This document shows, in pieces, positions 10,633 to 56,489 of a stretch of DNA of 64,000 nt; position 1 is the stretch's first letter, and every line of letters begins with the position of its first letter. A program made the position numbers and the translations under genes. The notes beneath the pieces are model-generated. The model ran no database searches and had not been told where the DNA came from. It saw nothing but the letters and a program-made list of their open reading frames with translations. This DNA comes from Anaerolineae bacterium (GTDB taxonomy: Bacteria; Chloroflexota; Anaerolineae; B4-G1; SLSP01), in NCBI GenBank assembly GCA_016931315.1, contig JAFGFB010000214.1:8353-72352 (forward strand), written 5' to 3'.

Positions 10633-11379
10633 ATGTACAAAGTCGTATTGCTACGTCATGGCGAAAGTGTTTGGAACCAGGAAAACCTTTTCACCGGCTG
10701 GACGGATGTAGACCTCTCCGAAAAAGGTGTCAAAGAGGCGCACACTGCCGGAAAAACCCTACGCGCTGAAGGCTACACCTTCGACGTCGCTTTCACCTCG
10801 GTGCTCAAACGCGCTATCCGCACCCTCTGGATCACCCTGGATGAAATGGATCTGATGTGGATTCCCGTTCACCGGCATTGGCGGCTAAATGAACGGCACT
10901 ACGGCGCGCTTCAGGGGCTGAACAAAGCCGAGACTGCCGCGAAATATGGCGACGAGCAGGTCCTTATCTGGCGACGCAGTTACGATATCCGTCCCCCGGC
11001 GCTGGACCCCGCCGATGAACGCTGGCCCGGGCATGATCGCCGCTACGCGGACCTCAAGCCCGAAGAATTGCCGGTTCACGAATGCCTCAAAGACACCGTG
11101 GAGCGCTTCCTCCCCTACTGGCTCGATACCATTGCCCCCGTGGTTAAGTCTGACAAGCGCGTCGTCATCGCCGCACACGGCAATAGTCTCCGTGCACTTG
11201 TAAAATATCTCGATGACATCTCCGATGAGACCATTCTCAAACTCAACATCCCTACCGGCGTCCCCCTCGTCTATGAGCTGGATGAGCATCTCAAGCCCAT
11301 CACCCATTACTACCTCGGCGATCCTGAGGCTATCGCTGCAGCTCAGCAAGCCGTAGCTAATCAAGGAAAGGCAAAATAA
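10633..11379 (+). CDS. gpmA: 2,3-bisphosphoglycerate-dependent phosphoglycerate mutase
   Basis: [29 protein letters not shown] is the canonical dPGM N-terminus (RHGE catalytic His). [10 protein letters not shown] provides the second His. GGAGG RBS upstream of the ATG at 10633. Confidence 0.95.
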
Positions 11380-11397
11380 CACTCCATACCCTCGCAT

Positions 11398-11430
11398 AAA
11401 ACGTGAACTGCTCCTTGCAGCTCACGTTTT
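11398..11430 (+). terminator. intrinsic terminator hairpin after gpmA
   Basis: AAAACGTGAACTGC-tcctt-GCAGCTCACGTTTT forms a 14-bp stem with one mismatch, an A-tract/T-tract flank and a T-run at the 3' end. Confidence 0.6.
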
Positions 11431-13758: not shown

Positions 13759-13781
13759 GCAATCCCGTATAAACCCGGAAT

Positions 13782-31669: not shown

Positions 31670-33076
31670 TTAAGAACTCAGCTCAGAGTGAAATTTGGCC
31701 AGAGCCGTATCAACTCCCGGAAGATCGCCCTCAATCAGGGCAATGCGGGCGCCATCAAGCACCCGATAGGCACGCATCTCTTCCGGCGTTCCTCGAAAGT
31801 TACCAAACAACTGCTCATAAGCAGTAGTAACCGCATCCACCGCTTCTACCAGAGTTTCGGGCTCGAAAGTAACTTCGGCATGATGCTCTGCCAGGCTCGC
31901 CTTCCAATCAGATTCCAATGCCGGCAATGATTTGCCATAAACACCACTATAATCACCGGTAGGATAGAGTTGCGCGAATTTCTCAGGCCCATACACATCC
32001 AGCAAATATTGGACAAAACATCCCGCAGCATAGTAATTCTCTAAATCTCGAATGTGCCCCTGAAAACTCAGGTTTGCTGAAACACGCGGCAGCACTCCAG
32101 CAAGATCATAGGCCGCACAGAAGACCCGGAGAGGTAAATGCCCCTCCCCAGCTACAGCACTCATACCTGTGGAAACTGCAGCGCCTTCACTCAACATCGC
32201 CGAAACTGGTCGCCCAAAGACGTTCCAGGCATATAAATGCGTAAGTTCATGGGTGGCGATATATTGTTGATCAGCCGGGCTACCGGTGCCATCATGAAGG
32301 AAAAAATAGCGTCGAGATGCAGAGACACTGAATCCACGCAGAGCTTGATTGGGAGCAGCGAAAATCGAGCCTGCCACATAGACATCAAAAGACCCGACCA
32401 AAGGCTGCGCAAAAGTTTGTTCAATATACCCCAATCCCCGCGTCACCATAGCCGCTGTGGCAGCAGCATTCTGCGCCGGGTAGGTTCCTGGAGCAAAATG
32501 CAAGGTAAAACGTTCCATTGCCATGGTCTCTGGATATTCTGCAGCAAGATCCCCTTCAATGGCTGAGGGCACCCACACTTCAACCGTGGATGGTGTTGAC
32601 AGTGGAGTATCCGTTACGGTAGACACTGGCGGTGACGTCGGTGTTGAGACGATCACACCAGCCAAAGGGATAGTAAGCACTTGTCCAGGCCAGATTGTCT
32701 CACCGATAATGTTACTTGCCATTGAAAGCGCTTCGACACTCACCTCGAAACGCGTGGAGAGCTCCCAAAGAGTATCGTCAGGCTGCACAGTATAAGTGAG
32801 AATCTTTGCAGGCTCAAGAGTTGGCTCAGATTCCAGTCTGACCGTCGTCGGGGCAACTTCCGGTGATAACATCGGCGTGGGCGTGACGGTCTCCTCGATT
32901 ACGGGCACAACAGCCTCCGTAACCACCAACGTGGCAGAAGGTGGTAGTGATGTTGCGATAGGCGCGGCGCCAGAACGGCCCAGGACAAACACAAGCGCCA
33001 ATATCACAAGGCCAAGCCCCAATGCCGCACCCAGCCCGATTAAAACATCCCGTTTGGAAATTGTCTGCAAATTCAA
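31670..33076 (-). CDS. membrane-anchored LysM + peptidase-MA-like (HExxH) protein
   Basis: LysM YTVQPDDTLWELSTRFEVSVEALSMASNI...GQVLTIP, and metallopeptidase motif ATHELTHLYAW. The start was moved to the TTG at 33076 (AAGGA 9 nt upstream) because the ORF-track start at 33232 overlaps K5 by 143 nt. The start is uncertain. Confidence 0.7.
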   Translation of the reverse strand: MNLQTISKRDVLIGLGAALGLGLVILALVFVLGRSGAAPIATSLPPSATLVVTEAVVPVIEETVTPTPMLSPEVAPTTVRLESEPTLEPAKILTYTVQPDDTLWELSTRFEVSVEALSMASNIIGETIWPGQVLTIPLAGVIVSTPTSPPVSTVTDTPLSTPSTVEVWVPSAIEGDLAAEYPETMAMERFTLHFAPGTYPAQNAAATAAMVTRGLGYIEQTFAQPLVGSFDVYVAGSIFAAPNQALRGFSVSASRRYFFLHDGTGSPADQQYIATHELTHLYAWNVFGRPVSAMLSEGAAVSTGMSAVAGEGHLPLRVFCAAYDLAGVLPRVSANLSFQGHIRDLENYYAAGCFVQYLLDVYGPEKFAQLYPTGDYSGVYGKSLPALESDWKASLAEHHAEVTFEPETLVEAVDAVTTAYEQLFGNFRGTPEEMRAYRVLDGARIALIEGDLPGVDTALAKFHSELSS

Positions 33077-33089
33077 GATCGATATTCCT

Positions 33090-35075
33090 TCATTTTGACC
33101 AACTCGGCGCCCAATGTTGATCACTTTCAAGAAGTGTACGTCGTCGCCCACCGTTATTGTCCACAACCTCGATGCCATTATCCGAATTGAAGGCAATCCA
33201 ACCTTCAGAGGACCATGTTGGACGTCCTGCATGAAAGCCGGTCACAATCTGTACTGGCGCGCCGCCATAGGTCGAGAGCCGCCAGATAGTATCAGCGGTA
33301 ACACTGCCAGGAGCGGTTGTGGAGTGATAGATGAGATATTCCCCATCGGGTGACCAGGCGGGCCAGCGGCAATTCACGGCAGACTGCGTCATTTGGGTGG
33401 TTCGATCACTCTGGAAATCATAGATGTAAATCTGCCAGTTCCCACTGCGCTGCGACATGAAAGCCAGCTGCGCCCCGCTTGGTGAGAAAACCGGCGCACG
33501 GCCCTGCCCCGCAACGCTGTATGCGCCACCGCCATCCACCCGCATCACCTGCAACGCGCCATCAGCATTGCGATCTCCATCAGTTGGATTGACGCGGTAG
33601 GCGATATGTTCACCAAGCGGCGACCAATCCGGCTCGCGCTCATCGGTAAGAGCATCCGTGGTCAAGCGTACTGGTGTCCCACCCGTGACACTCACCTTCC
33701 AGATATCATAGGAGCCTTCGCAATTGGATTGATAGACGATCCAATTGCCATCTGGAGACCAGGCTGGCTCAGCCTCATCGCAAGTACGACAAGCCACACA
33801 CAACGCATTGCGCCCATCGGCATCAGCGACGTAAATATCCGTATTGCCAACATTGCCCTTTACGTATGTCAATCGCAGCGGAAGGGACACAGGGACAGCC
33901 TGCGTGGCAGTCTCCGTGGGTGATAATGCCGTTTCGCGGGGCGGAGATGTTAGCGTTGGGGGGCGGGGAGTGACTACAATCGGCTGTTCCAAAGCTGGTG
34001 TGTTAACCACTGGCAATGGTGTGTCCAAAACCGCCGGAGCTGTAGGTAGTTCTGGCGAAAGCTGCAATGCTAAAGAGCCATTCGACCCTCGAAGCAGCCT
34101 AATCCCCAGAATCACTCCGCCGATCAGCACCAGAATCAGGAAACCCAAACCCAAACCAATCCAAATACCGGACCGCGAGGCCGGGATCGCAGCCACTTTG
34201 GCAGAACTGGCATTTTGCATCAATGCCGTTCGCATAGGAGGACTTTGGGCCGGCACACGTGCAGTAAACAAGTCCCCGCAAAACTCCCGCACACTACCAT
34301 AGCGGAGATGTGGCTGCAATTGTAGCGCGCGCCCCAGAGCCTCAATCAGATGGGGTGGCAAATTCGCCTGCAAGGAGCTCGGATCAGGCAGCGGGAAAGG
34401 TGTAACAGCACTGACAGGATTGTACCCCGTCACCAGCTGATGTAATAACACACCCAGGCTGTAAATATCAGAACGCGGGTCGGTTTGCCCCATCCCACCG
34501 TATTGTTCCGGTGCGGCATATCCTGGTGTACCCAGATTTACGGTATCCTGTGTGCGTCCGCTCTTGAAGAAGCGTGCAACGCCGAAATCAATCAGTTTGA
34601 CCTGTCCCTTCTCATCGAGCATGACATTGCCGGGCTTGAGATCACGAAAAACAACCGGTGGTTGTTGACCGTGCAGGTAATCAAGCACCTCACAAAGCTG
34701 GCGCGTAATGCGCAACGCTTCATCAAGCGGGAAACGTGCGCCTGGAACACGCCCTAGACGCGATTCGAGTGTCTCACCCTGAATGTACTCCATCACAAGA
34801 TACCAATTTCCCCCCTCAGGAAAGAAATCCGTGACGTTGGTAAGCCCTGGATGATGCAGATTTGCCAGCATCTGCGCCTCCTGGCGAAACGCCTGAATGG
34901 CCCAATTACGATCACCAGGAGCCAATTGCGCAGGAGACATTTCTTTGATCGCGCACTGACGCCCCGCCAAACGGGTGTCGTCCGCCAGGTAGACGGTTCC
35001 CATCCCCCCACCGCCAATCCGGCGTTGGACGCGATAACGATTTTGTAGGATTACGCCCGTCTCAAGCATCGCCAT
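33090..35075 (-). CDS. Ser/Thr protein kinase K5 (family B) with TM and a TolB-like PD40 beta-propeller ectodomain
   Basis: GGGGMGTVY, CAIKEM, FRDLKPGN and DFGVAR. TM IWIGLGLGFLILVLIGGVILGI. Repeated ...P.WSPDG..I.Y.S pattern (PD40/WD40-like). Confidence 0.93.
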   Translation of the reverse strand: MAMLETGVILQNRYRVQRRIGGGGMGTVYLADDTRLAGRQCAIKEMSPAQLAPGDRNWAIQAFRQEAQMLANLHHPGLTNVTDFFPEGGNWYLVMEYIQGETLESRLGRVPGARFPLDEALRITRQLCEVLDYLHGQQPPVVFRDLKPGNVMLDEKGQVKLIDFGVARFFKSGRTQDTVNLGTPGYAAPEQYGGMGQTDPRSDIYSLGVLLHQLVTGYNPVSAVTPFPLPDPSSLQANLPPHLIEALGRALQLQPHLRYGSVREFCGDLFTARVPAQSPPMRTALMQNASSAKVAAIPASRSGIWIGLGLGFLILVLIGGVILGIRLLRGSNGSLALQLSPELPTAPAVLDTPLPVVNTPALEQPIVVTPRPPTLTSPPRETALSPTETATQAVPVSLPLRLTYVKGNVGNTDIYVADADGRNALCVACRTCDEAEPAWSPDGNWIVYQSNCEGSYDIWKVSVTGGTPVRLTTDALTDEREPDWSPLGEHIAYRVNPTDGDRNADGALQVMRVDGGGAYSVAGQGRAPVFSPSGAQLAFMSQRSGNWQIYIYDFQSDRTTQMTQSAVNCRWPAWSPDGEYLIYHSTTAPGSVTADTIWRLSTYGGAPVQIVTGFHAGRPTWSSEGWIAFNSDNGIEVVDNNGGRRRTLLESDQHWAPSWSK

Positions 35076-35141: not shown

Positions 35142-35579
35142 TCATCGCTCCGGGCACGGTGGCATCTTGAGAACATTCCCAGGGTGGATGACATAACCCT
35201 TTATGGCATCATTCCAGGCAAGATTGTTAAGCGTCGCCACCTGCTCAGAATATTGCCTGAGAGCATCATCAAGAGTCACTAAAGCCCAATTCTGCGGGCA
35301 ATAACGACGGCAAACGGCGTATAGACTCTCACCCGATTGAACAATGATCTGCTGCTGCGGCGCCAGAGTTGAGGTTGGCGGCAAAATATCCGGGGGTGCC
35401 GACGTCGGGGTTTCTGGCATCGGAGTAGCTGTAATTGGTGACTGTGGCAGCGGAGTAACCGCAGCTTCTCCGCCCAGCCAATCTGCAAGAGCATGAGCAC
35501 CCCACCCCAAAAGCAAACCCAACACTGCCAATCCCACCAATGCCCCGATTAATAGAAACTGTGATTTTGACCTAAACAT
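35142..35579 (-). CDS. small membrane-anchored LysM-like protein
   Basis: ATG at 35579 (GGAG upstream), a TM anchor, a PT linker, then IIVQSGESLYAVCRRY...GYVIHPGNVLKMP, which resembles a LysM domain. Confidence 0.5.
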   Translation of the reverse strand: MFRSKSQFLLIGALVGLAVLGLLLGWGAHALADWLGGEAAVTPLPQSPITATPMPETPTSAPPDILPPTSTLAPQQQIIVQSGESLYAVCRRYCPQNWALVTLDDALRQYSEQVATLNNLAWNDAIKGYVIHPGNVLKMPPCPER

Positions 35580-35601: not shown

Positions 35602-37734
35602 TCATTCCATCTCCACCACAATTACCGAGATATTGTCCTCACCACCCGCCGCATTCGCAGCCGCTATCAGAGCGTCACAGGCTTGCTGTGGGCTACGCGC
35701 CGTTTCAACAAGGTGTTGAATCTCAGTATCCAGCACCATCTCCCACAGACCATCGCAGCACAGAATCAATCGGTCCCCACGCAATAATACCATCGTGAAG
35801 GTATCTACTTCCACTTCCTCTTGTTGCCCCAGGGAGCGGAAAATTTGATTGCGTTGGGGGTGGCTGCGCACTTGCTCCTGTGTAATCACGTGCGCCTGCA
35901 CCAACCGTGCAACCAGGGAATGATCCTGGGTAATCTGTCGTAATTGCCCTTCTCGCAGCAAGTAAGTGCGGCTGTCACCCACGTTGGCAATCGTAGCGAT
36001 ATTCCCAATGACTAGCGCCGCAGTGACTGTAGACCCCATATTGCTCTGCTGAGCACTGGCATGGCGGGCAAGGACTTTGTTCGCCGCCTGAACCGCTTCC
36101 TTGAGCAAATTCCCAGGTATATTCTCAGTGGTCAGTTTTCGAGTCTCTTTGCGCAAATCAGGGAGCACCTTGCTCTTGAGAATCCACTCGGTTACAACCT
36201 GGTAAACCATACGACTGGCGACATCACCAGCATCGTGCCCCCCCATCCCATCCGCCACCATATAGAAACCGATGGGTACAGCTCCTCCCTGTTGGGCTTT
36301 ATCAAAAGTAAAGGTAACCACCGAATCTTCGTTGCGCGCATGTTTGCGTCCCGGATCGGTTGCCTGCCCATGAATAGGTTTGAGTGGACGTCCCATCGCA
36401 GGGGCCGGCGCCATCGAAAGGCCCGCCAACATTGCCGCCACTGTCGGAAATTGCCCCTGCAAGGCAGCCTCGATGATCCCGCGGTGCTCTTCGGGTACGG
36501 CCTCCAACGCACCCGCAATGGGTGGTGCGCCTGTCGTGAGATAGCCGAGAGTCTGCCCTAAAAATGCGATATCGCGGGCCACCTGTGCCCGACCACCATC
36601 GTGTGCCGAAAGCGGAACACAAGCGCTGATATCTGCTACTTTCACGGACCCATCGCCGCCAAAGGTCACCAGACGCTCCAGATTTTCCAACAATGAGGCT
36701 GTTGCCGGGGTGAAAGCAAGGCCTTGCTGATGCAAGTAGATCAGTACACGCCCTATCGGTCCCAGCATCATGAGCGCGTCCTCTGGCGAACGTGTGCGCC
36801 GCCCACGCACCAGCACCCCCCACCGCCCTGGATGCTCCACAATAGTATACACTGCCTGCTGAAAAGCAAGACTATCACGGTGAAAGAGAATATCAGGGTG
36901 ACCAGCACGTCCCAGGGCAAGGGCTGCGGTTCCGACCGCGGTTCCGACCGCCGCATCAGGCGGCACATTCGCCTCACCAGAGACACGGCGTTCATGAATC
37001 AGGACAGTATTCAGAGGCGTCGAGCAGTGGGTACACAATCCGTTAGCAGGAAACTGTGGGTGGAGGGTGTGGCATGCAGCATTCGGACAGAGCAGGTCAA
37101 TCGCATCGTAATATATCGAGTAACTCAACTCCCGCGTCGTGAGAATATGGTAGCGCTGTGCAAAAATCGCCCCTGGAGTGAAGGGCTTGATGCCCCCACC
37201 GGGCACACCCCCACCCGGGGCGCCTGCAGGTGTGGTAATGATTCGATCCGGGAACGCGGATGACGATGCTCCCGGCGATGCAGGTTGCGGCGTGGCAGGT
37301 GGTACAGATTGCAGCGCAGATGGCCCCGCGGGCAAGGGTCTTGGCGGCGGCGGCGCAGTCGGCACGGTAGTTATGCGAGGAGCTGAGGCCGGTGAAGCCG
37401 GCGCGGGAACCTCCGGCGCTGATGCAGGCTGCTGAGCAGCTTGCTCGACCAAAACACTAGTGCGCGGCTGTCTGCGTGCAGGTGGAGCGGATTCAGCCGG
37501 CACACGCTTAGGTCTGCCCAAAATACCGCGAAATTCCTGCAGCACCCGCCCTAAAATCGCGTCACCACCAGAAGAGGCGCTTGGGGCTCCAGATTTTCCA
37601 GAGCAGCGCCTGCCATCTTCTGCAATATCCAACCTGGCGCCGCATTGGCTACAAAACCAACGTTCACCCGGTGCCGGAGGACTTGCCTCGACATTTTCCG
37701 CGCCGCATCGTGGACACACTTTCTTATAGGGCAT
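35602..37734 (-). CDS. zinc-ribbon / pseudokinase-like / PP2C phosphatase fusion (copy a)
   Basis: N-terminal CPRCG...CSQCG. A central kinase-like region (YLHQQGLAF..., VKVADIS) lacks the G-loop, VAIK Lys, HRD and DFG, and has an inserted CPNAAC...CTHC ribbon. C-terminal PP2C motifs: MVADGMGGHDAGDVAS, GDSRTYLL, CCDGLWEMV and GGEDNISVIVV. Confidence 0.85.
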   Translation of the reverse strand: MPYKKVCPRCGAENVEASPPAPGERWFCSQCGARLDIAEDGRRCSGKSGAPSASSGGDAILGRVLQEFRGILGRPKRVPAESAPPARRQPRTSVLVEQAAQQPASAPEVPAPASPASAPRITTVPTAPPPPRPLPAGPSALQSVPPATPQPASPGASSSAFPDRIITTPAGAPGGGVPGGGIKPFTPGAIFAQRYHILTTRELSYSIYYDAIDLLCPNAACHTLHPQFPANGLCTHCSTPLNTVLIHERRVSGEANVPPDAAVGTAVGTAALALGRAGHPDILFHRDSLAFQQAVYTIVEHPGRWGVLVRGRRTRSPEDALMMLGPIGRVLIYLHQQGLAFTPATASLLENLERLVTFGGDGSVKVADISACVPLSAHDGGRAQVARDIAFLGQTLGYLTTGAPPIAGALEAVPEEHRGIIEAALQGQFPTVAAMLAGLSMAPAPAMGRPLKPIHGQATDPGRKHARNEDSVVTFTFDKAQQGGAVPIGFYMVADGMGGHDAGDVASRMVYQVVTEWILKSKVLPDLRKETRKLTTENIPGNLLKEAVQAANKVLARHASAQQSNMGSTVTAALVIGNIATIANVGDSRTYLLREGQLRQITQDHSLVARLVQAHVITQEQVRSHPQRNQIFRSLGQQEEVEVDTFTMVLLRGDRLILCCDGLWEMVLDTEIQHLVETARSPQQACDALIAAANAAGGEDNISVIVVEME

Positions 37735-39461
37735 TAGCGTTTACTCCACTTTCCGTCTGCAAACAACAGATAAATCGTGCCTGTATCCATCCGCAGAATT
37801 GCGCCACGTTCAAAGTCCTGCAACGTGGCATCAAAACCACGTTCGAGATCCATCGCCGAACCAAGCCCATCGCGCACGGCAGCATTAGAGCACCAAACCT
37901 TGCCAAAACCCCGCAGCGGCGTGGGCGGCGTCGTCTCAGTTCCACAAGTGTAAATGGAATCCCCATCACGCCAGGTATTGGCAAATCCCTGCCATGGTCC
38001 TCCCTGATACACAGCATAAATGCGATCACTGTCCTCGCGCCAGAGCATCAAACCCTTCTCAAAATCCTCTATGGCCAACCAACTGGAATGTGCGTCATTT
38101 GTGGCGCAACCCAAGCCAGCCTGTTCCGAGCGCCAGATATCTGCAAAGGGACCGGTAACCTCAGGACAAGCGGGAGTAGGCGTTGCAGCCGACGTTGCAG
38201 TCGCAGCCGACGTTGCGGTCGCAGCTGGCGCTGTGGTCGGAGTTGGCAGCGGGGTTTCGGCGGGAAATGGCGTGGGAACCGTTGTTGCGGCCGCAACCGT
38301 TGTAGCCGTGGGAGGTTCAATGAGCGGTGGTACCTCAGTTACTTGCGCTACGGTAGGTGCTGCCGCTATTTCAGTTACCACGACCTCCGTTGGAGTAATG
38401 CCCCCTACCAACATTGGCGTTCCGCGTTCACGCTCAAGCAGATTAGCCAACGTAAGCCCAGCCAACACTAACACAACCAGTACCGCGAGTACCGCCACCA
38501 GGCCCTTCCAGGGAAAGACGCGCGCTGACGGCGCCGATACAGCAGCTGCATATGGAGGACTGGCATGGGGTGTGCCCCCCGGTCCCATAACGGCGGTATT
38601 GGCAAATACCCCGGGAGGCGAATGAACCAGACTTCCCCATTGTTGCAACGCCATCCGGACCTCTGTCGCGGTCTGAAAACGCGCCTCAGGGCGCAATTCC
38701 AACATTCGCAGCAGAATGGCTTCAAGATATGAACTTACCTGCGGATTGAGGTGTCTCACAGGCACCAATGTCGCCGGGTTGACAATTCGCATCGTTGCCG
38801 TAGGCGGAGTCTGCCCGGTAAGCGCATGATATAGGGTCGCGCCAAGGCTGTAGATGTCACTACGCGCATCCGTAAAACCTGCCTGAGAATCATACTGCTC
38901 AGGAGGAGCATACTCTGGCGTTCCCATCGAGCGAATCACCGTGCGCGTCCGTGGATCGCCGGAATTCCAAAGTTTGACCAGCCCAAAGTCCACCAAAATC
39001 ACATAACCATCGGGGCGCACAATCACATTCTGCGGCTTAATATCGCGGTGAATAATGCCCTTCTCATGACAATACGTTAAAGCGTCAAGCAACTGATCCG
39101 CCCAGGCAAGCACCTGAGATTCTGGCAGACAGCCCTCCCTCGCTATGCGGGCAGCGAGACTCTCACCCTCAATGAAATCCATCACCAGATAAGCGTTTCC
39201 GTCTTCCTCAAAGAAATCGGTCACCCGAACCAGATGCGGATGGCTGAGATTCGCCAGCACTGCCGCCTCTTGCTGAAACTGCTGCTGTAATTGCGCCAGA
39301 ATCTGCCCATTGATATCGGATTGCGGTATCATCTCCTTCACGGCGCGCGGCGCATTCAGCCGCATGTCCCAAACACGATAAACGGCCCCCATTCCACCCT
39401 GTCCGAGCAGGCGAGCCACGCGATAGCGCCCTTGGAGTACATCACCGATGTTCAGACTCAT
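37734..39461 (-). CDS. Ser/Thr protein kinase K6 (family A) with TM, PT linker and a Cys-containing ectodomain
   Basis: GQGGMGAVY, RAVKEM, HRDIKPQN, DFGLVK and TPEYAPPE. The stop overlaps the downstream ATG (TAATG). GGGAGG RBS. Confidence 0.95.
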   Translation of the reverse strand: MSLNIGDVLQGRYRVARLLGQGGMGAVYRVWDMRLNAPRAVKEMIPQSDINGQILAQLQQQFQQEAAVLANLSHPHLVRVTDFFEEDGNAYLVMDFIEGESLAARIAREGCLPESQVLAWADQLLDALTYCHEKGIIHRDIKPQNVIVRPDGYVILVDFGLVKLWNSGDPRTRTVIRSMGTPEYAPPEQYDSQAGFTDARSDIYSLGATLYHALTGQTPPTATMRIVNPATLVPVRHLNPQVSSYLEAILLRMLELRPEARFQTATEVRMALQQWGSLVHSPPGVFANTAVMGPGGTPHASPPYAAAVSAPSARVFPWKGLVAVLAVLVVLVLAGLTLANLLERERGTPMLVGGITPTEVVVTEIAAAPTVAQVTEVPPLIEPPTATTVAAATTVPTPFPAETPLPTPTTAPAATATSAATATSAATPTPACPEVTGPFADIWRSEQAGLGCATNDAHSSWLAIEDFEKGLMLWREDSDRIYAVYQGGPWQGFANTWRDGDSIYTCGTETTPPTPLRGFGKVWCSNAAVRDGLGSAMDLERGFDATLQDFERGAILRMDTGTIYLLFADGKWSKR

Positions 39462-40195: not shown

Positions 40196-42982
40196 TCAGC
40201 GTACATCCTGGCGCCGTAACACCCACGCCGTTCCCAGGCCGAATACCAGACTGAAAATCGCCAGAATTCCCCAGACGCGCAGCAGATGTGCCGTCGTGCG
40301 CGCATAACTGATGCCGAAGGTCACTCCGCCGATAATATCCACCGGCTCGGCTTCGATGGTGACGGATTCACGCACTGTCTCAGTGACGGTGCGCAACTCA
40401 TGCACCATCACCTCCGGCACAGAGATGGGGATGGTCTGCGTGATTCCTGGCTGCACTTGTACTTCCAACAACCGTGTGGCGGTAATCACCGTTACCGGTT
40501 CCCAATCCGCCGCAGGTTTCTCCACGTCAAAGGCGACCTCAGCCGTCATCGGATCAAGATGTACTCGCGTGCGGCTCAGATCACTGAGACGATCCATATC
40601 CACCGACCCGCCCAGCCCTTCCAGCGTCCAGCGCGTCAGCGTCAGCGCCGAGAGCTCCTTGGTGGCGCCCGGCAATTCAAAAAGCGTGCCAGTGAAGATC
40701 AGCTGGAAGAAGAGCAGCATGAATAGAATATAGATCACGGTATTGGTGTTGGGGACCAGCACTGAGATAAACAACCCTATGTGAATCGCCGCAAGCGTGG
40801 CGAGGAACAGGGTGATGAACATCTCTACCGGCGCGGGGAGAAACACCCCCATAGCAGGAAGGCGGACTTTGAGCGCGATGACCAACAACAACAGCCCGCA
40901 TTGCAACAGCGCAAAGGTCCCGATGACCAGAACCTTCGAGAGCAGATACGGCCCGATGCGCACTGTCACCATGCGCTCCCGTCGGTAGATGGAGCGTTCT
41001 TTCACGATCTCGTAGCCCGACGCAAAGAGTCCCAACAACACACCAGCAAATGCCAACAGAAAAAGCAGATTCAGGCTGTTCGTTACGATGCTATAGGTGG
41101 CACTCGAAGCTCCCGTTGCCAGCTCCGCCGCCAGCTGCCGTTCGATCTCGCCCAGGGTGTCCCCCTGCAACCACTGCGGCCCCGCCACCAGCAGAATCAA
41201 ACCGCCGACCAGGGGCATCACCGCCAAGAGCACTGCCAGTAGCACACGATCACGCAACACTAGGTTGAGATAACGCCGGGTCAGCACACCCAACTGGCGC
41301 AGGGGATTGACCTTCGACCCCCTTGTCTGCGCCTCCCCGTCCGAGGCGCCTTCCGCCGGGGTTGCCACACGCTGCTGGCGCTGTACGATATAGCGCCGGT
41401 AGGTATCCGACTCTCGATAGCGTTTTTCCCAATCCACAGCTTTCTGGTGGGCGCGCTGTGGATCCGCATCATCCAGCCGGTCATAGACATCGGAAAAATC
41501 ACCGGTAGCGACCTCGAAGAAGGTGAAAGCCTCCTCCGGAGGTCCAAAGTAGGCCAGGCGGCCGTGAGCGAGAAAGCAAACATGATCACATTGGCTGATG
41601 TTCGCCGTGGCGTGCGTCACCAGCACCACCGTCCGTCCTCCATCGGCGAGATGGCGCAGTGTGTACATCATCTTCTTCTCCAGGCCCGGATCGAGGCCCG
41701 ATGTCGGCTCATCGAGAAAGAAAAGCCGTGGCTCCGCCAAGAGCTCCACGGCGATGCTCACCCGCTTGCGTTGCCCGCCGCTGAGGCTGCTCACAACTTG
41801 CTCGCTCTGGCCCCCCATACCAACATCTTGCAAGACCTGCTCGACGCGCTGCGCCAGCTCCGCCGCGGTGGTATCGGGGGGCAGGCGGAGCTGCGCGGCA
41901 TAACGCAACACATCCAGCACCGTCAAGTCTTTGTGGATAATATCATCCTGCGGCACATAGCCAATCATGGTGCGATAGAGGTCGAACTGCTGATAGAGAT
42001 CATCGCCATTGACGAGCACCTGTCCATGTTGCGCACGGACCACACCACTGAGAGCCTTCATCAACGTGCTCTTGCCCGCACCGCTAGTGCCTACCAGGGC
42101 CACAAACTCCCGTGGATGAATGGTAAGACTGATGTCATCGAGAATGCGCTTCGTGCGCTCACCCTTCCCCACCTCGCGCACTAACTGCACGCCATCGAGG
42201 CGAACTCCACCCGCAGCGACATACTGCTGGAGCTTACCTGCGCTGTAGACGAGACTAAAGGGACCAATCTGAACCACATCCCGTTCTCGCAACAGATAGG
42301 GACGTTCGATCCGCTGTCCGTTAACAAAAGTACCGTTAGTACTGTTGAGATCAGTCAACACCGAGCCCTGCGGCCCGGCCGTAATACTAGCGTGGCGCCA
42401 TGAAACAAGCGGCGCCTGCAAAGGAATACCTGATTGCGGATCTCGCCCTAGTGTCAACGCCCCTTCCGGCGCAAGGACCAGCGAACCCATCCTTTGCGGA
42501 CCTTGCAGCGCAGTCGATGCGCCCAGCATGAAAGTGAGGCTGGCGGAATTGCCCTGGAGATCACCGATGCGCAGAATATCACCGTGGTTCAGAACGGCAC
42601 TCTGAACACGACGCCCGTTGAGAAAAGTACCGTTGGTACTGCCGAGATCCACATACTGCCATTGAGTACCCTGGCCCTCCAGTCGCCCGTGGTACCCCGA
42701 AACATAGGGAGATGGTAGCACCAGACCATTGGAAGGAGCGCGTCCGATAGTGACCGTTGTTTCCGTGAGGGTTAACTCATAGGGAGGCTGCCCCAACAAG
42801 CGAATGATGAGACGAGGCATCGTCACAGGCACGGCTTCTGCTGGCGCAGCGCTGCGGAGCGTCGGGGTGGCTTCCACGCCATCCGGCATAGGACCCGTGA
42901 CGCGCTCCTGCCCACACACCGGGCAGAAACGCGCCTTGGGGTTACGCAACTCACCGCCGCAGAAACGACAAAATTGGGGCAT
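40196..42982 (-). CDS. zinc-ribbon / 2x FHA / ABC ATPase / ABC-2 permease fusion (Rv1747-like FHA-ABC transporter)
   Basis: CRFCGGELRNPKARFCPVCG. FHA1 TIGRAPSNGLVL...YHGRL...GSTNGTFLNG. FHA2 LTLGRDP...WRHASI...NSTNGTFVNG. Walker A GTSGAGKST, signature LSGGQRKR and Walker B LFFLDEPTSGLD. About 6 TM C-terminally. Confidence 0.93.
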   Translation of the reverse strand: MPQFCRFCGGELRNPKARFCPVCGQERVTGPMPDGVEATPTLRSAAPAEAVPVTMPRLIIRLLGQPPYELTLTETTVTIGRAPSNGLVLPSPYVSGYHGRLEGQGTQWQYVDLGSTNGTFLNGRRVQSAVLNHGDILRIGDLQGNSASLTFMLGASTALQGPQRMGSLVLAPEGALTLGRDPQSGIPLQAPLVSWRHASITAGPQGSVLTDLNSTNGTFVNGQRIERPYLLRERDVVQIGPFSLVYSAGKLQQYVAAGGVRLDGVQLVREVGKGERTKRILDDISLTIHPREFVALVGTSGAGKSTLMKALSGVVRAQHGQVLVNGDDLYQQFDLYRTMIGYVPQDDIIHKDLTVLDVLRYAAQLRLPPDTTAAELAQRVEQVLQDVGMGGQSEQVVSSLSGGQRKRVSIAVELLAEPRLFFLDEPTSGLDPGLEKKMMYTLRHLADGGRTVVLVTHATANISQCDHVCFLAHGRLAYFGPPEEAFTFFEVATGDFSDVYDRLDDADPQRAHQKAVDWEKRYRESDTYRRYIVQRQQRVATPAEGASDGEAQTRGSKVNPLRQLGVLTRRYLNLVLRDRVLLAVLLAVMPLVGGLILLVAGPQWLQGDTLGEIERQLAAELATGASSATYSIVTNSLNLLFLLAFAGVLLGLFASGYEIVKERSIYRRERMVTVRIGPYLLSKVLVIGTFALLQCGLLLLVIALKVRLPAMGVFLPAPVEMFITLFLATLAAIHIGLFISVLVPNTNTVIYILFMLLFFQLIFTGTLFELPGATKELSALTLTRWTLEGLGGSVDMDRLSDLSRTRVHLDPMTAEVAFDVEKPAADWEPVTVITATRLLEVQVQPGITQTIPISVPEVMVHELRTVTETVRESVTIEAEPVDIIGGVTFGISYARTTAHLLRVWGILAIFSLVFGLGTAWVLRRQDVR

Positions 42983-46107: not shown

Positions 46108-47940
46108 TCATAACGGCGGCGGAGGGGGTGGCGGTGTTGTCGGCTCAGGCGTCGGCTCTTGAGTCGGCGGTTGTGTCGGTTCTTGGGTCGGCGGTTGGGT
46201 GGGCTCCTGCGTCGGTGGTTGAGTTGGCTCCTGCGTCGGCGGTTGAGTAGGTTCCTGCGTCGGCTGCTGTGTAGGGGCTTGCGTTGGAGGTGGAGTCGTT
46301 GGTGCGGCTGTTGGGCGGGGTGTCGTCGTGGCAGATGGGCGCTCAACCACCCGGAAAGACCGTGAGCTACTTTCGGCTACAACATTCCATGTACCGCCAG
46401 CCTGCCGTTCTACCGCCACCAGCCATGTGTAGGTTCCTAGTGCGAGGCTCCGCTCTGCAGCGGTGAAACGATAAACCAATGCGGCCTCGGGATTGTTGAA
46501 CTGCTGCCGCAGCACTTCCTGACCAGCAGAATTCTCCACAATCACAACAAAGCGCTGATCAAACGCCAAACGCTGCGACCACTGCCAGGTCAATTCAATA
46601 GCAGAAGTCGGATAATAGCCCTGGTTATCCGGTGGCCCTGTAAGTTCCGGTGGCGGAAGAAGCGCTTCCGTTGCCGTGGGAAGCGGTGTGATAGTAGGTG
46701 TAGGTTGAGCAGTCGGGCTTGCCGTGGCAGTAGCCGTTGCCCGCGCAGTTGCCGTGGCAGTCGGGCTTAGGTAGAGGGTTGGTGTTGCTGTAGGCGTTGC
46801 CTTTTCCCTACCCCATAGTCCCAAACGGGCTGCACGAACTGCACCCCCAGCAATAAACAATACCAGGACCAACGCAGCCAACACCCAAATCCATTTCGGG
46901 AATCCGCCTGCTTTAGGCATCGCCTCCCGCGGAACAACGGGCGCTGCCGCACGCGGTGACGCAGGTACTACCGCGGCCTGCCGCGGCACAACCTGCGGTT
47001 GCCCTGGTCCTATAGCAGCACCCGCAGCAGCACGGGGATCCATTTGGGCTGTACCCCCAGGCTCTTTGCTCGCAGGACGAGGCCCCGTATCGGTCTGCGG
47101 AGTCCAGGCACGCACCGAAACCCCCAATCCCGCGGCCATCTCCACAGCACTCTGCCAGCGTTGGGCGCGCGAGAGCTCTAAAGATCGAAAAATCGCCGCT
47201 TGTGTGCGCTGGCTCACCCCTTTCACCTGACCCCACACGCGGAGGAACTGCTCGGGGTCTGCCATGCGCAGCGTTGCTGTGGGTGGTGCATGTCCAGTGA
47301 GGGCGTGATACAACGTAGCTCCTGTGCTGTAAACATCACTACGGCCATCTGTGTGCCCGGCGCCCGCATCGTATTGCTCCGGTGGTGAGTATTCCGGGGT
47401 TCCCATCCCGCGCATGATAGTCTTGGTGCTCGGGTCAGCCGGATTCCAAAGTTTCACCAAACCGAAATCTACTAACACGGCGTGTCCATCGGGACGAATG
47501 ATAACGTTCTGCGGTTTTACATCCCGATGGATGATGCCACGACTATGACAATAAGCCAGCGCATCCAACAACTCAGCCGCCCAGGCAAGCGCTTGGTTCT
47601 CTGGAATCGCCCCCCAGCTCTCGATGTACTGCGCCAGACTATGTCCACTGACAAAGTCCATCACCAGATAGGCATTGCCATTCTCCTCGAAGAAATCAGT
47701 GACGCGCACCAGATTGGGGTGCTGGAGCCGGGCAAGCACCAACGCCTCTTGCTGAAATTGCTGACGCAGCTGCGCCAGAGTCGAGGCATCCAGGTCGGGT
47801 TGGGGGAACATCTCTTTGAGAGCGACCAACACATTGAGGCGCGTATCCACCGCGCGGTAAACCGCGCCCATACCACCTTGTCCCAAGGGCAATTCCACCC
47901 GGTAACGCCCCTGCAAAAAATCATCAGGTTTCAAAACCAT
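46108..47940 (-). CDS. Ser/Thr protein kinase K7 (family A) with TM, an ectodomain and a PTQE/PTQP repeat tail
   Basis: GQGGMGAVY, VALKEM, HRDVKPQN, DFGLVK and TPEYSPPE. ATG at 47940 with a GGAG RBS. The ORF-track 25-aa extension is Cys/Trp-rich. Confidence 0.95.
   Translation of the reverse strand: MVLKPDDFLQGRYRVELPLGQGGMGAVYRAVDTRLNVLVALKEMFPQPDLDASTLAQLRQQFQQEALVLARLQHPNLVRVTDFFEENGNAYLVMDFVSGHSLAQYIESWGAIPENQALAWAAELLDALAYCHSRGIIHRDVKPQNVIIRPDGHAVLVDFGLVKLWNPADPSTKTIMRGMGTPEYSPPEQYDAGAGHTDGRSDVYSTGATLYHALTGHAPPTATLRMADPEQFLRVWGQVKGVSQRTQAAIFRSLELSRAQRWQSAVEMAAGLGVSVRAWTPQTDTGPRPASKEPGGTAQMDPRAAAGAAIGPGQPQVVPRQAAVVPASPRAAAPVVPREAMPKAGGFPKWIWVLAALVLVLFIAGGAVRAARLGLWGREKATPTATPTLYLSPTATATARATATATASPTAQPTPTITPLPTATEALLPPPELTGPPDNQGYYPTSAIELTWQWSQRLAFDQRFVVIVENSAGQEVLRQQFNNPEAALVYRFTAAERSLALGTYTWLVAVERQAGGTWNVVAESSSRSFRVVERPSATTTPRPTAAPTTPPPTQAPTQQPTQEPTQPPTQEPTQPPTQEPTQPPTQEPTQPPTQEPTPEPTTPPPPPPPL
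46138..46287 (-). repeat. in-frame 12/24-nt tandem repeat encoding (PTQE-PTQP)n
   Basis: The peptide PTQAPTQQPTQEPTQPPTQEPTQPPTQEPTQPPTQEPTQPPTQEPTPEPT is followed by TPPPPPPPL. The DNA units are similar but not identical, with synonymous differences. Confidence 0.85.
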
Positions 47941-48092
47941 AAAAGGCTCCTTCGACTGGCAGGAAAAGGCAATCCAAGATGCGGAACAAGTTATGTCACA
48001 CAGATTGTGCCACAAATCACTATAGATGCACTGGTCGAGCAGCTAACCTGCTTCGATTCCGTGATGTTTATTGCGCCTGAACCGGCGACGCT

Positions 48093-49013
48093 TTAGATTT
48101 GGAAAGTCGTTTTGATACGCCCGAACCTTACCTCGTCACCACTGGCCAGAGCTTGGGGTTGCCGTGGTACAAGCTTTTGTTGGTTGACGAAGGTGAAATT
48201 GGTGCTGTTGAGGTCCTCGATGAAGAAACGCTCACCCTGAACTAAAATCCGGGCATGCTGCCGGGAAACACCGCCCTCATCCCCGCCATAATCAGTGAGA
48301 TCAATATCGGGGAATACACCACTGACCGGGTCTTCCCTCCCAATAATGACCTCGTTTTTTCCAACCGGGAAAGGCAACGCTGTATTTGAACCTGAGATAA
48401 GCAAACGCCCACGCACTGCTACTGGCGGAGCGATATAAGGTGCAGGCTGCGGCGCAACGGGCTGAGGAAAGCCTGCTCCCCCAGGCTCAGGCGCCGGGTA
48501 AACGGCTTGACCTGGCTGCGCAATCATGGTGGGCGCATACTCGCCAGGCACGGCCGGCGCGCCAGCAACTGGCGGCGCATAAGCCGCCGGCAGGGGAGGC
48601 GGAACCGCAGCAGCGCCCACGGCCGTAGCAGGAACTGCCTGTACAGGCGCCCCGCACATATCGCAAAAAGCACTATCAGGCTCAAGAGCCGCGCCACAAT
48701 TTGGACACGTTCGCCCACCCGCTGCCGCAGCAGCGAGCGGAAGTCCGCTATCCGGCGTGGCAAAACTACCTGGCATAGCCGGAAGACTGCCGACCGCAGA
48801 GCCACAGCTATTGCAAAACTGCTCACCTGGCGCTATCTGAGCGCCACATACAGGACACAGAGAGGCAGCTACTGTAGGAATCCCCCCTGGAATCCCCCCC
48901 GCAGCAGGATTAGCCATTCCAGCTACTGGCGGTCCACTCAGCGCCGCACCACATTCATCACAGAATGCAGCACCGTCCGGTTGCTGCGAGCCACAATTTG
49001 AGCAAATGACCAT
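48093..49013 (-). CDS. triple zinc-ribbon + C-terminal FHA protein
   Basis: CSNCGSQQPDGAAFCDECG, CPVCGAQIAPGEQFCNSCG and CPNCGAALEPDSAFCDMCG. FHA VIIGRED...SRQHARI...DLNSTNFTFVN. ATG at 49013 with GAAGGAGGGGG upstream. Confidence 0.9.
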   Translation of the reverse strand: MVICSNCGSQQPDGAAFCDECGAALSGPPVAGMANPAAGGIPGGIPTVAASLCPVCGAQIAPGEQFCNSCGSAVGSLPAMPGSFATPDSGLPLAAAAAGGRTCPNCGAALEPDSAFCDMCGAPVQAVPATAVGAAAVPPPLPAAYAPPVAGAPAVPGEYAPTMIAQPGQAVYPAPEPGGAGFPQPVAPQPAPYIAPPVAVRGRLLISGSNTALPFPVGKNEVIIGREDPVSGVFPDIDLTDYGGDEGGVSRQHARILVQGERFFIEDLNSTNFTFVNQQKLVPRQPQALASGDEVRFGRIKTTFQI

Positions 49014-49064
49014 CGCCCCCTCCTTCAACTTAAAACAACGAGATCCTTACCCGGCCAGTTTGGG

Positions 49065-50324
49065 CTAATCGTCGAGTTTCTGTGTCAATTTCCGCGTCTC
49101 ATAGCGCAGTTTCTTAGTGCCATGTGCGGAAAGGCCCTGCCCCTGCTCCAATCGGTCAGCCTCCCGACGAGCAACATCAGCCAGTTCTGGCTCACCCAGA
49201 TCGAGCAACCGGGTTGCGGCAGCCCGCAGCTTCTGTGTCGCCCCCGCAATATTGCCGGCTGCAGCCTCGTCCAGCGCCCGTGTTTGCAGTTTGTGCGCCG
49301 TGACCTTTTCCACAACGTTCAAGACAGCGGCATGGCTGGCAGCGGTTTCCATTGAATCTCCAGAAAACGCCAGGACCACATCAGTTTTAACCTTCTCATG
49401 AGTTAATCCTAACGACGCCACATCATAGGCAATCTCCGCTTGTGCCAATCGGTACTTTCCAGCAGGCAGCGGAGGGATCAATAATTCAACAAGGACACTT
49501 TGCCCTTTCCCGCATTCCATATCCCCTAACGTAACCTGCACATCCCGCGCCGAAACTGCGCGCTGCCCAAGCAGACTAATCATTGGCGTTACACGCCACA
49601 CTGCACGCGGAGTCACACCTTCTGCTAAACGCAACAGCAGTAGCGCATTCTGAACCACACTGCGCTGTGCGCTACGCACTTGCCGCTGAAATGTGCTTAA
49701 AATGGCTTCTGGTTGCCCCTCGGGAATGAAATCGGATACCCCGCCACTGTTTTGTGCAAGCGCATCCAGCAGCGTCTCATTCCACCCCTCACCCAATCCC
49801 AACGCAGAGATGGCTATGTTGCGCTGCGCAGCCTCGGCTGCAAGCGACAGACATTCCCGCTCATCACCGTAAGTCTCGCCATCGGTGAGCAATAGCATAC
49901 GACTGACACGATCTGCACCCACACCCTTGATAAGCTCATCCAATCCAGCGCGTATTCCGCGCGCAATCTTTGTGCCGCCTTCAGCACGGATTTTGTCAAT
50001 ACGCGCTTTGAGGACAGCCGAATCGTTGACCAGTTGACTGGGCAACACTACTTGTACCGAATCATCAAAAACCACAACGGAAACAAGGTCGTGTTCCGTC
50101 ATCTCATCAATGGCAAGGCGCGCTGCAGCCTTAAGGTTCTCAATCTTGGTTCCACTCATGGAACCACTATGATCCAGCACAAGGCAGAAATTGAGGGGCA
50201 TTTGTATGGATGCCAGCACATCAGCGGGCATAACCGTCATCAGCACATAGACTAATTGTTGCCCGTCGGTGACGGGAAACACCGTCTTATTCGTCTGCAC
50301 CATCAGGGAAATCTCGTCAGACAT
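49065..50324 (-). CDS. cytoplasmic vWA-domain protein with an intact MIDAS (TerY-like) and a helical C-terminal domain
   Basis: LVLDHSGSMSG (DxSxS), GGTKIARG and LLLTDGETYGD. No signal peptide. The start overlaps the upstream PP2C stop by 8 nt (ATGTCTGA). GGGGAGG RBS. Confidence 0.9.
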   Translation of the reverse strand: MSDEISLMVQTNKTVFPVTDGQQLVYVLMTVMPADVLASIQMPLNFCLVLDHSGSMSGTKIENLKAAARLAIDEMTEHDLVSVVVFDDSVQVVLPSQLVNDSAVLKARIDKIRAEGGTKIARGIRAGLDELIKGVGADRVSRMLLLTDGETYGDERECLSLAAEAAQRNIAISALGLGEGWNETLLDALAQNSGGVSDFIPEGQPEAILSTFQRQVRSAQRSVVQNALLLLRLAEGVTPRAVWRVTPMISLLGQRAVSARDVQVTLGDMECGKGQSVLVELLIPPLPAGKYRLAQAEIAYDVASLGLTHEKVKTDVVLAFSGDSMETAASHAAVLNVVEKVTAHKLQTRALDEAAAGNIAGATQKLRAAATRLLDLGEPELADVARREADRLEQGQGLSAHGTKKLRYETRKLTQKLDD

Positions 50325-51438
50325 TCCAACCTCCCCAGTAACGTTGCAACAACGTCAGAAATGATGGAATTGCTGCCGCAGGAGCAGTTTCAGATGCAGG
50401 CGAATACATCCCCCAGCCAATGACGAGCATGGCAGCGAAAATCACAAACGCGATGACGAGCAGCGCAATCAATAGTGCCCGTCTGCGAGATGGCTCCAGT
50501 TGGGCAAGGTCCTCTCGCAGGGCGGCAACGTAACCCGGCATCGAGGCAGGTCGCAGTTTTACAGGCGCAGTCGCTGCTGCGCCACCCACACGCGCCAGAA
50601 CTACTGAAATGTTATCATAACCGCCCTGAACATTAGCCATCTCGATCAAGCGCTCTACTGCGCGGCGTGGAACACTGCCCGACACCGTCCGAACGATCTC
50701 AGCCTCGGGCACCATATCATAGAGGCCATCAGAACATAAGACGACCATATCGCCCGGCGCCAGCGACACTGGGCGGAACACATCGACCATCACTGAAACA
50801 GCAGCTCCAAGGGCGCGTGTCAGCACGCTGGCATCAGGGTCATTCGCCACCTCTGCTTGTGCAATCGCGCCCCGCTCGGCTTTTTGCTGCGCCAGGGTAT
50901 GGTCACGACTTTGTTGATACAACACACCATCGCGGAGGAGATACGCGCGGCTATCACCCACATTCGCAAGGTACAATTGCCCTTCATGTACGATGGCAGC
51001 CACCATGGTGCTCCCTGCCTGCGTGGCTCCGATCTCTTTTAGATAGCGATGCAATGCAACATTGGTTTGCTCAATCGCCTCGCGTAAGTCACCAGTGAGG
51101 TCTTGTCCGGGTAGCGCATAATAACGCTCAGCAACAAGACGGATGGCCCATTGACTTGCTGCGCTGCCAACCTGTTCGCCACCAATGCCATCGGCAACTA
51201 ACAGCAACTGCCCCTTGCGTGCCAGTAGATCGGCAGAGGGGCTGTAAAAACGCTTGCCGTCCATCGGATCCGGGTAAATGGCATCCTCGTTGACGGCACG
51301 TTCGCGTCCCACATCAGTTGCGCCACATACGTCCAGGCCCAACAGCTGAGGATTTGAACGGCGTGAGTCGAGCACGCTGCCCGGTTGCCCACTAGATGGC
51401 GCCGCCAATCCGGCGGCTTCAGCAGATACCATCGTCAT
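50317..51438 (-). CDS. PP2C Ser/Thr phosphatase with a C-terminal TM anchor (PstP-like)
   Basis: LVADGIGGEQVGSAAS, GDSRAYLL, LCSDGLYDMV and GGYDNISVVL. TM ALLIALLVIAFVIFAAMLVIGWG. Confidence 0.92.
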   Translation of the reverse strand: MTMVSAEAAGLAAPSSGQPGSVLDSRRSNPQLLGLDVCGATDVGRERAVNEDAIYPDPMDGKRFYSPSADLLARKGQLLLVADGIGGEQVGSAASQWAIRLVAERYYALPGQDLTGDLREAIEQTNVALHRYLKEIGATQAGSTMVAAIVHEGQLYLANVGDSRAYLLRDGVLYQQSRDHTLAQQKAERGAIAQAEVANDPDASVLTRALGAAVSVMVDVFRPVSLAPGDMVVLCSDGLYDMVPEAEIVRTVSGSVPRRAVERLIEMANVQGGYDNISVVLARVGGAAATAPVKLRPASMPGYVAALREDLAQLEPSRRRALLIALLVIAFVIFAAMLVIGWGMYSPASETAPAAAIPSFLTLLQRYWGGWNV

Positions 51439-56408: not shown

Positions 56409-56489
56409 AGCACTCACCTTTGAGGAAGAAGGAACTTTACATTCTAACTATACAGCAGTTAAGCCCTTTATGCAAGCGAAAGAAGTTTT

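Follow-up and report, generated by a model that had tools for sequence, protein, structure and literature searches.

The 64,000 nucleotides (nt) of contig JAFGFB010000214.1 of an Anaerolineae bacterium (assembly GCA_016931315.1) that were analysed here, hereafter the window, carry on their minus strand a gene (35602..37734) whose 710-amino-acid (aa) product combines a predicted zinc ribbon, a linker, a pseudokinase and a PP2C phosphatase. This fusion protein represents a pseudokinase family that is new and had not been annotated before; the fusion is likewise new and follows the known logic of phosphatases equipped with targeting modules. The gene was delineated from the list of open reading frames (ORFs) and from ca. 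60 relatives having the same architecture. An earlier sequence-only reading had described an ATG-start ORF of 710 aa with these four parts in that order; all four were found at the positions proposed and their identity is assigned with very high confidence.

The central region (aa 186-450, with a start at ca. 186; 36385..37179, minus strand) has a protein-kinase (Hanks) fold, which can be regarded as settled. This fold is hidden from searches that start from a single sequence: Pfam and NCBIfam scans of the fusion protein gave no match over aa 186-450, no Pkinase domain (PF00069, gathering threshold 31.7 bits) was detected in it at E<=0.1, and a phmmer search of the PDB with the single sequence returned matches to the PP2C part only and nothing kinase-like. 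One relative, P0027, reaches just 19.5 bits with the PF00069 model. A family profile was therefore needed. When a two-sequence profile of the domain was compared to 1.84 billion representative proteins, 57 matches were obtained, ca. 36 of which carry the same C-terminal PP2C as indicated by local hidden Markov model (HMM) searches, while the weaker matches correspond to bona fide Pkinase proteins. With a profile of 27 sequences, 814 PDB sequences were matched at E<=1 and the best 60 of these 814 are all protein kinases, among which NEK1 (2.1e-10), StkP (4.7e-9), RSK2, PAK1 and PknE. Profile-profile alignment (hhalign) of the domain with the seven kinases of the window gave a probability of 99% (E 3.8e-18). 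An AlphaFold2 (AF2) model of the domain, built with the 27-sequence alignment, is confident (predicted local distance difference test, pLDDT, 91.2; predicted template-modelling score, pTM, 0.88) and presents its secondary-structure elements in the order of a kinase. A Foldseek comparison of this model with the PDB resulted in 1827 matches at E<=1e-3, the best 50 of which are all protein kinases, with PknB of Mycobacterium tuberculosis in first position (1mru_A, E 6.5e-10, TM-score 0.57). The kinase-like nature that had been proposed from spacing and motifs is thus supported by profile and by structure, and the equivalences proposed at that time reappear in the hhalign alignment, with RYHIL corresponding to strand β1, YLHQQGLAF standing for YLH..IIHRD and VKVADIS occupying the DFG region.

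Not all matches of the domain profile belong to this family. P0029, a eukaryote-type RING-finger protein, was matched via its Cys motifs and was discarded as spurious. Three other proteins of ca. 1160-1195 aa (P0026, P0035 and P0053) are weak matches having an active Pkinase domain at ca. aa 320-525; their N-terminus is kinase-like, is devoid of an HRD motif and is not recognised by Pfam, so that they correspond to tandem pseudokinase-kinase proteins, in a JAK-like order, with sequences of prokaryote type.

The individual kinase residues were mapped by profile-profile alignment with the window kinases, and family counts refer to an alignment of 62 members. The Gly-rich loop (GxGxxG) aligns to E-L-S-Y-S-I and no Gly is conserved at this place in the family. 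The Lys of strand β3 (VAIK) is replaced by His247, in a column composed of His (47), Arg (14) and Lys (1). The column of the αC Glu has an Ala in the fusion protein and is not conserved in the family, the predicted αC helix (aa 266-276) having no acidic residue. The HRD motif aligns to F341-T342-P343, with Glu, Pro, Gly and Asp occurring in 20, 8, 8 and 7 members, respectively, at the Asp column and with H-S-E at the HRD position in several close relatives. The catalytic-loop Asn aligns to Arg354, located beside a conserved Glu353 (56/62). A gap of ca. 24 residues faces the activation segment, including the P+1 loop and the APE motif, and ca. 11 residues are absent where αG is expected. Two Asp are retained, namely that of the DFG motif (D368, in V-A-D-I-S, 58/62) and that of αF (D388, 53/62), which are separated by just ca. 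19 residues. The earlier statement that none of the catalytic residues is present thus stands for the β3 Lys, the αC Glu, the HRD Asp, the Asn and the Gly-rich loop but not for the DFG Asp, and proper alignment did not bring back the catalytic Lys or Asp, whose positions are held by His247 and Pro343.

A pseudokinase is defined as a kinase fold in which at least one of the VAIK Lys, the HRD Asp and the DFG Asp is missing (PMC12599244; bioRxiv 10.1101/2025.01.12.632604). As far as can be judged from the sequence, the central domain is a pseudokinase by this usual definition, having the fold and having lost the Lys and the HRD Asp. In addition, two N-lobe positions of the catalytic spine (C-spine) are occupied by bulkier residues, Val being replaced by Tyr208 (Tyr in 58/62) and Ala by Leu245 (Leu in 59/62). 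Because of these residues and of the absence of the Gly-rich loop, ATP binding is improbable, and the substitutions point to a pseudokinase that probably does not bind ATP.

That the domain would instead be an atypical active kinase, transferring phosphate via D368, Glu353, His/Arg247 and H-S-E and making the protein a bifunctional kinase-phosphatase comparable to those of Pseudomonas that have a PP2C and a kinase, is very improbable. Such an activity would be in line with the retained DFG Asp and with the Glu or Asp found at the HRD-Asp column in 27/62 members; active kinases devoid of the canonical Lys do exist, such as WNK (cited in PMC12599244), and proteins in which a PP2C is accompanied by a recognised Pkinase domain have been described (PMC12088040; PMC1262709). 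It is difficult to reconcile, however, with F-T-P at the HRD position, with the lack of both the Gly-rich loop and an acidic residue in αC, with the 24-aa deletion that removes the activation segment, the P+1 loop and APE, and with the bulkier C-spine residues, by which the adenine pocket may be filled.

Scanning one genome per GTDB species with the pattern HPG[RQH]WG.., which derives from a narrower alignment of the domain and samples the close subfamily only, revealed 29 loci, all in metagenome-assembled genomes (MAGs) of Chloroflexota (Anaerolineae, Thermoflexia and Chloroflexia). A word-indexed homologue search retrieved one match with the single sequence and one with the 27-sequence profile. 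In the source databases, relatives are named just "SpoIIE family protein phosphatase" or "PrpC". In two loci, the orthologue is split into two overlapping ORFs, inside the PP2C for L001 (10001-11879) and inside the pseudokinase for L005 (5482-7580); these are frameshifts, due either to assembly errors or to real pseudogenes.

Comparison with the closest orthologue, which is 87% identical in the pseudokinase domain, gave a ratio of non-synonymous to synonymous substitutions (dN/dS) of 0.089 in the pseudokinase. The PP2C has a dN/dS of 0.033 and the linker one of 0.21, which makes the latter the long segment of the fusion gene that is under the weakest constraint. The pseudokinase is under purifying selection and, with a dN/dS of 0.089 as opposed to 0.21 in the linker, this dead kinase is not decaying. 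Several non-catalytic residues are near-invariant in the family (Y208, Y209, W305 and L245). The domain could in principle be what is left of a kinase-phosphatase fusion present in an ancestor and now serve as a mere spacer, since the catalytic motifs have degenerated unevenly across the family and since two orthologues appear frameshifted in MAGs. This is hardly credible, being contradicted by the selection acting on the domain when compared to a true linker, by its confident AF2 fold (pLDDT 91), by the conservation of the above-mentioned Tyr, Trp and Leu residues, and by its maintenance in ca. 60 divergent sequences.

The C-terminal part of the fusion protein (aa 451-710, with a start at ca. 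451; 35605..36384, minus strand) is a PP2C (PPM) domain of the Stp1/PstP/tPphA type, as indicated by Pfam (PF00481, E 4.6e-20), by comparison of its C-terminal 255 aa with the tPphA, PstP and Stp1 entries of the PDB (E 1e-33 to 1e-30) and by the NCBIfam model Stp1_PP2C_phos (NF033484, 237.1 bits for a cutoff of 230). Another NCBIfam model, NF011149, which describes a 642-aa phosphatase, was not retained as it matches solely via its PP2C part. All PPM motifs are intact (RxxNED, DGMGGH, GDSR, DH, DG and DN), and N468, D470, D495, G496, D587, D604, H605, D661, D700 and N701 are invariant in 58/58 members. Judging from these residues, the domain is a catalytically competent PP2C of Stp1/PstP type that is under selection to remain active.

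A particular feature of this PP2C is a flexible loop, P525-x-L-x3-T531-R-K-L534 (aa 525-534; 36133..36162, minus strand), which was recognised by conservation and by AF2. It represents a 9-aa insertion relative to tPphA and has a pLDDT of 60-64, yet its Thr is found in 54/58 members and the Leu at +3 in 51/58. Since pT-x-x-L is a motif preferred by FHA domains, the T531-x-x-L534 segment, which is encoded in a cluster rich in kinase and FHA genes, may serve as a phosphorylation or FHA-docking site. One may thus imagine that neighbouring kinases phosphorylate this segment or the linker and that FHA proteins of the cluster are recruited as a result, the fusion protein acting as a phospho-scaffold. 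The conservation of T-x-x-L in a low-confidence loop that is absent from tPphA and the occurrence of FHA genes in the window and in related loci are both consistent with such a role, for which MviN provides a precedent as it recruits FhaA after phosphorylation by PknB (PMC12599244). As the principal role of the protein it is nevertheless improbable, because the motif resides in the PP2C and not in the pseudokinase, leaving the retention of a kinase fold unexplained; moreover, it is compatible with docking of the phosphatase (see below) rather than exclusive of it.

The two remaining parts precede the pseudokinase. The N-terminus has a predicted four-Cys zinc ribbon (aa 5-35, C7/C10...C28/C31; 37630..37722, minus strand), proposed from the spacing of the Cys and from relatives, 51/62 of which keep the CxxC...CxxC. 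A second predicted four-Cys ribbon (aa 214-240, C216/C221...C234/C237; 37015..37095, minus strand) was located by alignment and interrupts the pseudokinase itself, in the β2-β3 loop of its N-lobe. Its Cys are kept in 48-55 of the 62 relatives, which is most of them, some being devoid of these residues, and the corresponding stretch has a pLDDT of 96-98 in the AF2 model. With a zinc ribbon taken as two CxxC knuckles ca. 15-20 residues apart plus a Pfam match, both sites have their four Cys, and the Pfam zinc-ribbon scores of the fusion protein itself are weak and below threshold; a DZR or Zn_Ribbon_1 match at E<=1e-3 occurs in 24/58 scanned family proteins. The first ribbon and the pseudokinase are separated by a linker (aa 46-185; 37180..37599, minus strand) that was defined by its composition, 69 of its 140 residues being Pro, Ala or Gly, and that is probably disordered. 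In relatives, 34 to 193 aa lie between the ribbon and the kinase-like domain.

The fusion gene is tightly linked to the gene located immediately upstream (37734..39461, minus strand), which encodes a 575-aa Hanks Ser/Thr kinase (Pfam Pkinase, E 1e-49). Its motifs are complete in the sequence (GQGGMG, AVKE, QQEA, HRDIKPQN, DFG and PE) and it is apparently active; it also has a hydrophobic, transmembrane-like stretch and a C-terminal Cys-containing domain, while no membrane segment is predicted in the fusion protein. The junction between the two genes (37732..37747, minus strand) reads GGAG-taaacgc-TAATG-cc (GGAGtaaacgcTAATGcc), in which GGAG (37747-37744), separated from the fusion-gene ATG by a 9-nt spacer, is followed by TAATG (37736-37732). 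Base 37734 is common to this ATG (37734-37732) and to the TAA of the kinase (37736-37734), so that the one-base overlap with an apparently active kinase noticed earlier is readily seen. The three orthologous loci nearest to this one (L002, L003 and L005) have an identical 1-nt overlap, and the same kinase-then-fusion arrangement is found in two distant members (L031 and L033) with gaps of 13 nt.

More generally, 27/31 loci have a Hanks kinase gene as the immediate upstream neighbour, in the same orientation. For 23 of these 27 upstream kinases, the kinase domain they resemble most at another locus also belongs to an upstream kinase, a figure that is to be compared with a share of only 30% for upstream kinases among all kinases considered and that is inflated by genome relatedness. 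The sensor part of the upstream kinase differs between clades. The surroundings contain further kinases, FHA proteins, an FHA-ABC transporter, VWA proteins and zinc-ribbon proteins, the FHA genes of the window being located at 40196-42982, 48093-49028, 51548-53641 and 55548-56417.

The explanation retained here, to which we give an even chance, is that a competent PP2C carries the pseudokinase as a recognition module for partner kinases or targets. The pseudokinase would be a non-catalytic module that docks the PP2C on the kinase domain of the co-expressed upstream kinase, perhaps on those of paralogues in the cluster, or on phospho-substrates, and each kinase module would thus have its own eraser. 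Support for this targeting role is indirect and comes from synteny. Docking as such, onto partner kinases or phospho-substrates, is plausible, although we would place it somewhat short of an even call. A more specific version, in which the pseudokinase heterodimerises with the kinase translated just before it and this dead partner brings in the phosphatase that resets the live one, is tentative and should be considered as rather doubtful. In an AF2 model of the pseudokinase together with the PP2C, obtained with a 32-sequence alignment, the pLDDT is 87.9 but the pTM is only 0.57 and no confident interdomain interface is present; AF2 thus predicts no fixed intramolecular interface, which would leave the pseudokinase surface free for partners.

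Several observations argue against docking on the kinase. The low pTM may simply reflect the shallow alignment. Different sub-clades have different upstream kinases, and the mean identity of kinase domains is 0.51 when upstream kinases are compared to one another and 0.46 when they are compared to other kinases. The residues of the PknB back-to-back dimer, which we take to be R10, L33 and D76, are not clearly kept, the Arg being found in 38/62 members, the column equivalent to Asp76 being variable by eye and the loop of L33 holding the ribbon insertion. The αG region, which is used in kinase front-to-front contacts, is shortened. Finally, the near-invariance of D368, E353 and His/Arg247 could reflect a site for a ligand or a metal rather than pure docking.

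This last point leads to the main alternative, in which the pocket of the pseudokinase senses a ligand or a metal via His/Arg247, Glu353 and Asp368, or in which the domain undergoes a conformational change and allosterically gates the PP2C. Conservation of D368 (58/62) and E353 (56/62), with the β3 position being always His, Arg or Lys, is stronger than would be required of a docking scaffold alone, just ca. 10 residues separate the last helix of the pseudokinase from the first strand of the PP2C, and N-terminal regulatory domains are common in bacterial PP2Cs (PMC9430166), as in RsbU, SpoIIE and the GAF-PP2C protein HltA. On the other hand, the AF2 model shows no confident packing of the two domains, nucleotide binding is unlikely given the missing Gly-rich loop and the Tyr and Leu at adenine-contact positions, and the conserved adjacency of a kinase gene is left unexplained. 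Overall, such a sensor is regarded as unlikely. Under the recognition-module explanation, and should heterodimerisation be true, the kinase and the fusion protein would form a self-contained writer, eraser and reader unit that has been duplicated and diversified in Chloroflexota, and the ribbons and the T531-x-x-L loop would add further control such as FHA recruitment.

A second copy of the architecture is present in the window, encoded by a divergent paralogue of 602 aa (53736..55544, minus strand) that was detected with the family profile (E 6.7e-21 on aa 80-310) and with the window-kinase HMM (E 1e-8). It has an N-terminal ribbon, a PP2C at aa 352-600 and a kinase-like domain carrying an inserted CxxC...CxxC ribbon. 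The decay of this domain follows another pattern: by eye, it keeps the αC Glu (FAQEAQ) and the catalytic-loop Asn (SPNHIVF) and is devoid of the Lys (RLHE), of the HRD Asp (LQT) and apparently of the DFG Asp (WTNL). The paralogue is preceded by an FHA gene (55548..56417), not by a kinase.

Downstream of the fusion gene is a gene (35142..35579, minus strand) for a small protein whose N-terminal stretch is hydrophobic and which also has a Pro-rich spacer and a LysM-like domain, the latter relying on a weak Pfam match. Its longest ORF runs to 35621 and overlaps the stop of the PP2C by 20 nt, an internal ATG at 35579 being the probable start. In at least 14 loci, a homologue comes immediately after the fusion gene, which may point to a signal linked to the cell wall. 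Further downstream, the longest ORFs of a LysM/peptidase-like protein (31670..33232) and of a kinase with a PD40 β-propeller (33090..35075), both on the minus strand, overlap by 143 nt, and the downstream gene probably starts later than its first ATG.

In total, one strand of the window encodes seven kinases and three PP2Cs, together with at least five proteins that contain FHA domains. The gene at 40196..42982 (minus strand) encodes a 928-aa protein in which a zinc ribbon at the N-terminus and two FHA domains are combined with an ABC transporter (ATPase and ABC-2 membrane domain); a counterpart of this protein is encoded upstream of the kinase and phosphatase genes in L001, L002, L004, L014 and L031. 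The third PP2C gene (50317..51438, minus strand; 373 aa) has no pseudokinase; it adjoins a VWA gene (49065..50324) and is close to Zn-ribbon/FHA genes (48093..49028 and 51548..53641) and to another kinase gene (46108..48015). Outside the signalling cluster, the region 7372..14972 contains a series of DNA-repair genes, encoding a UvrD-like helicase, a PD-(D/E)XK nuclease, RecJ and a DinB/IMS polymerase, and a histidine kinase is encoded at 3437..4927.

Few bacterial pseudokinases are known and almost none has been tested experimentally. The family described here, being invisible to Pfam and NCBIfam, adds a hidden lineage to these, and would count as an eighth bacterial family and, as far as found in the literature, the first fused to a PP2C, should the heterodimerisation considered above be true. 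It also offers a testable answer to the question of how, in a genome rich in kinase genes, a PP2C of low intrinsic specificity is paired with certain kinases. With its compact operon, which encodes a kinase, the pseudokinase-PP2C fusion and a LysM protein, and with its natural variants (presence or absence of the inserted ribbon, HSE or FTP at the HRD position), the system is suited to biochemical dissection.

Among known proteins, Stp1, PstP and tPphA resemble the fusion protein in PP2C sequence, in metal-binding residues and in the neighbouring Hanks kinases and FHA proteins, but they differ by the 450-aa N-terminal extension of the latter, with its two predicted zinc ribbons and its pseudokinase, and tPphA also lacks the conserved T-x-x-L loop. 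Besides its PP2C, PstP is known to carry a membrane anchor only, and pstP of M. tuberculosis is located in a comparable cluster. In a survey of bacterial PP2Cs, 90% had no other domain (PMC12088040); this 2025 survey also reported the combination of zinc ribbon/DZR and PP2C in Chloroflexota, that of Pkinase and PP2C occurring mainly in Pseudomonadota, while Krupa and Srinivasan described in 2005 a Pseudomonas PP2C located N-terminal to a kinase domain (PMC1262709). Neither of these two studies noted a kinase fold in Chloroflexota PP2C proteins, Pfam being blind to this fold. The composites of Pseudomonas and Deinococcus likewise join a PP2C and a Hanks fold in one polypeptide (PMC1262709; PMC12088040), but with the PP2C at the N-terminus and a kinase that is recognised by Pfam and presumed active, whereas the order is reversed in the fusion protein and its kinase is dead and Pfam-invisible. 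The cyanobacterial HltA/PhsP were also considered as relatives and were set aside as unrelated, being GAF-PP2C proteins of the RsbU group.

The recent atlas of bacterial Ser/Thr kinases and its review recognise seven pseudokinase families (ActPs1, ActPs2, ActPs3, GLW, CP1, DYD and DLHK), all being homologues of PF00069 (PMC12599244), and a link to a phosphatase is found in none of their descriptions. This agrees with the initial impression that the architecture had not been characterised, which the literature searched supports. Set apart by these published descriptions only, and on sequence features, the fusion pseudokinase appears to match none of the seven: it has no GLW in place of HRD, no Arg at β3, no HRD-Asn, no deletion of DFG and no COG3899, DEAD-like helicase or DNA2 part. 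The catalogued pseudokinases come from Actinobacteria or Proteobacteria, whereas this one is from Chloroflexota, holds an inserted ribbon, is fused to a PP2C and has no transmembrane segment. It also keeps the DFG Asp, which is missing in 98-100% of ActPs1, ActPs2, ActPs3 and GLW. The nearest in spirit is ActPs3/MviN, with which it shares the deletion of the activation loop, bulky residues in the ATP pocket and a kinase/FHA context (PMC12599244), even though ActPs3/MviN is described as an actinobacterial family that has lost all three motifs, DFG Asp included, and that has a C-terminal transmembrane segment.

Outside this catalogue, the association of a PP2C with a non-catalytic module that recognises its partner kinase is also the logic of the plant KAPP and of Deinococcus DRA0334 (KI-FHA-PP2C), which in function are among the nearest analogues, the recognition being ensured in these cases by a phosphothreonine-binding FHA domain instead of a dead kinase fold. 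No Pfam match to an FHA domain was found in the fusion protein, and the resemblance to KAPP is functional only. DRA0334 belongs to an operon of VWA, kinase, FHA and PP2C genes (bioRxiv 10.64898/2026.01.23.701218), in a way similar to the loci described here. Finally, the "kinatases" of kinetoplastids, likewise close in function, also unite a pseudokinase and an active phosphatase in one protein; these are eukaryotic, have a phosphatase of the unrelated dual-specificity/protein tyrosine phosphatase (DSP/PTP) fold, two pseudokinase domains and leucine-rich repeats, and are devoid of zinc ribbons, and a function in scaffolding or targeting has been proposed for them (PMC2175518).

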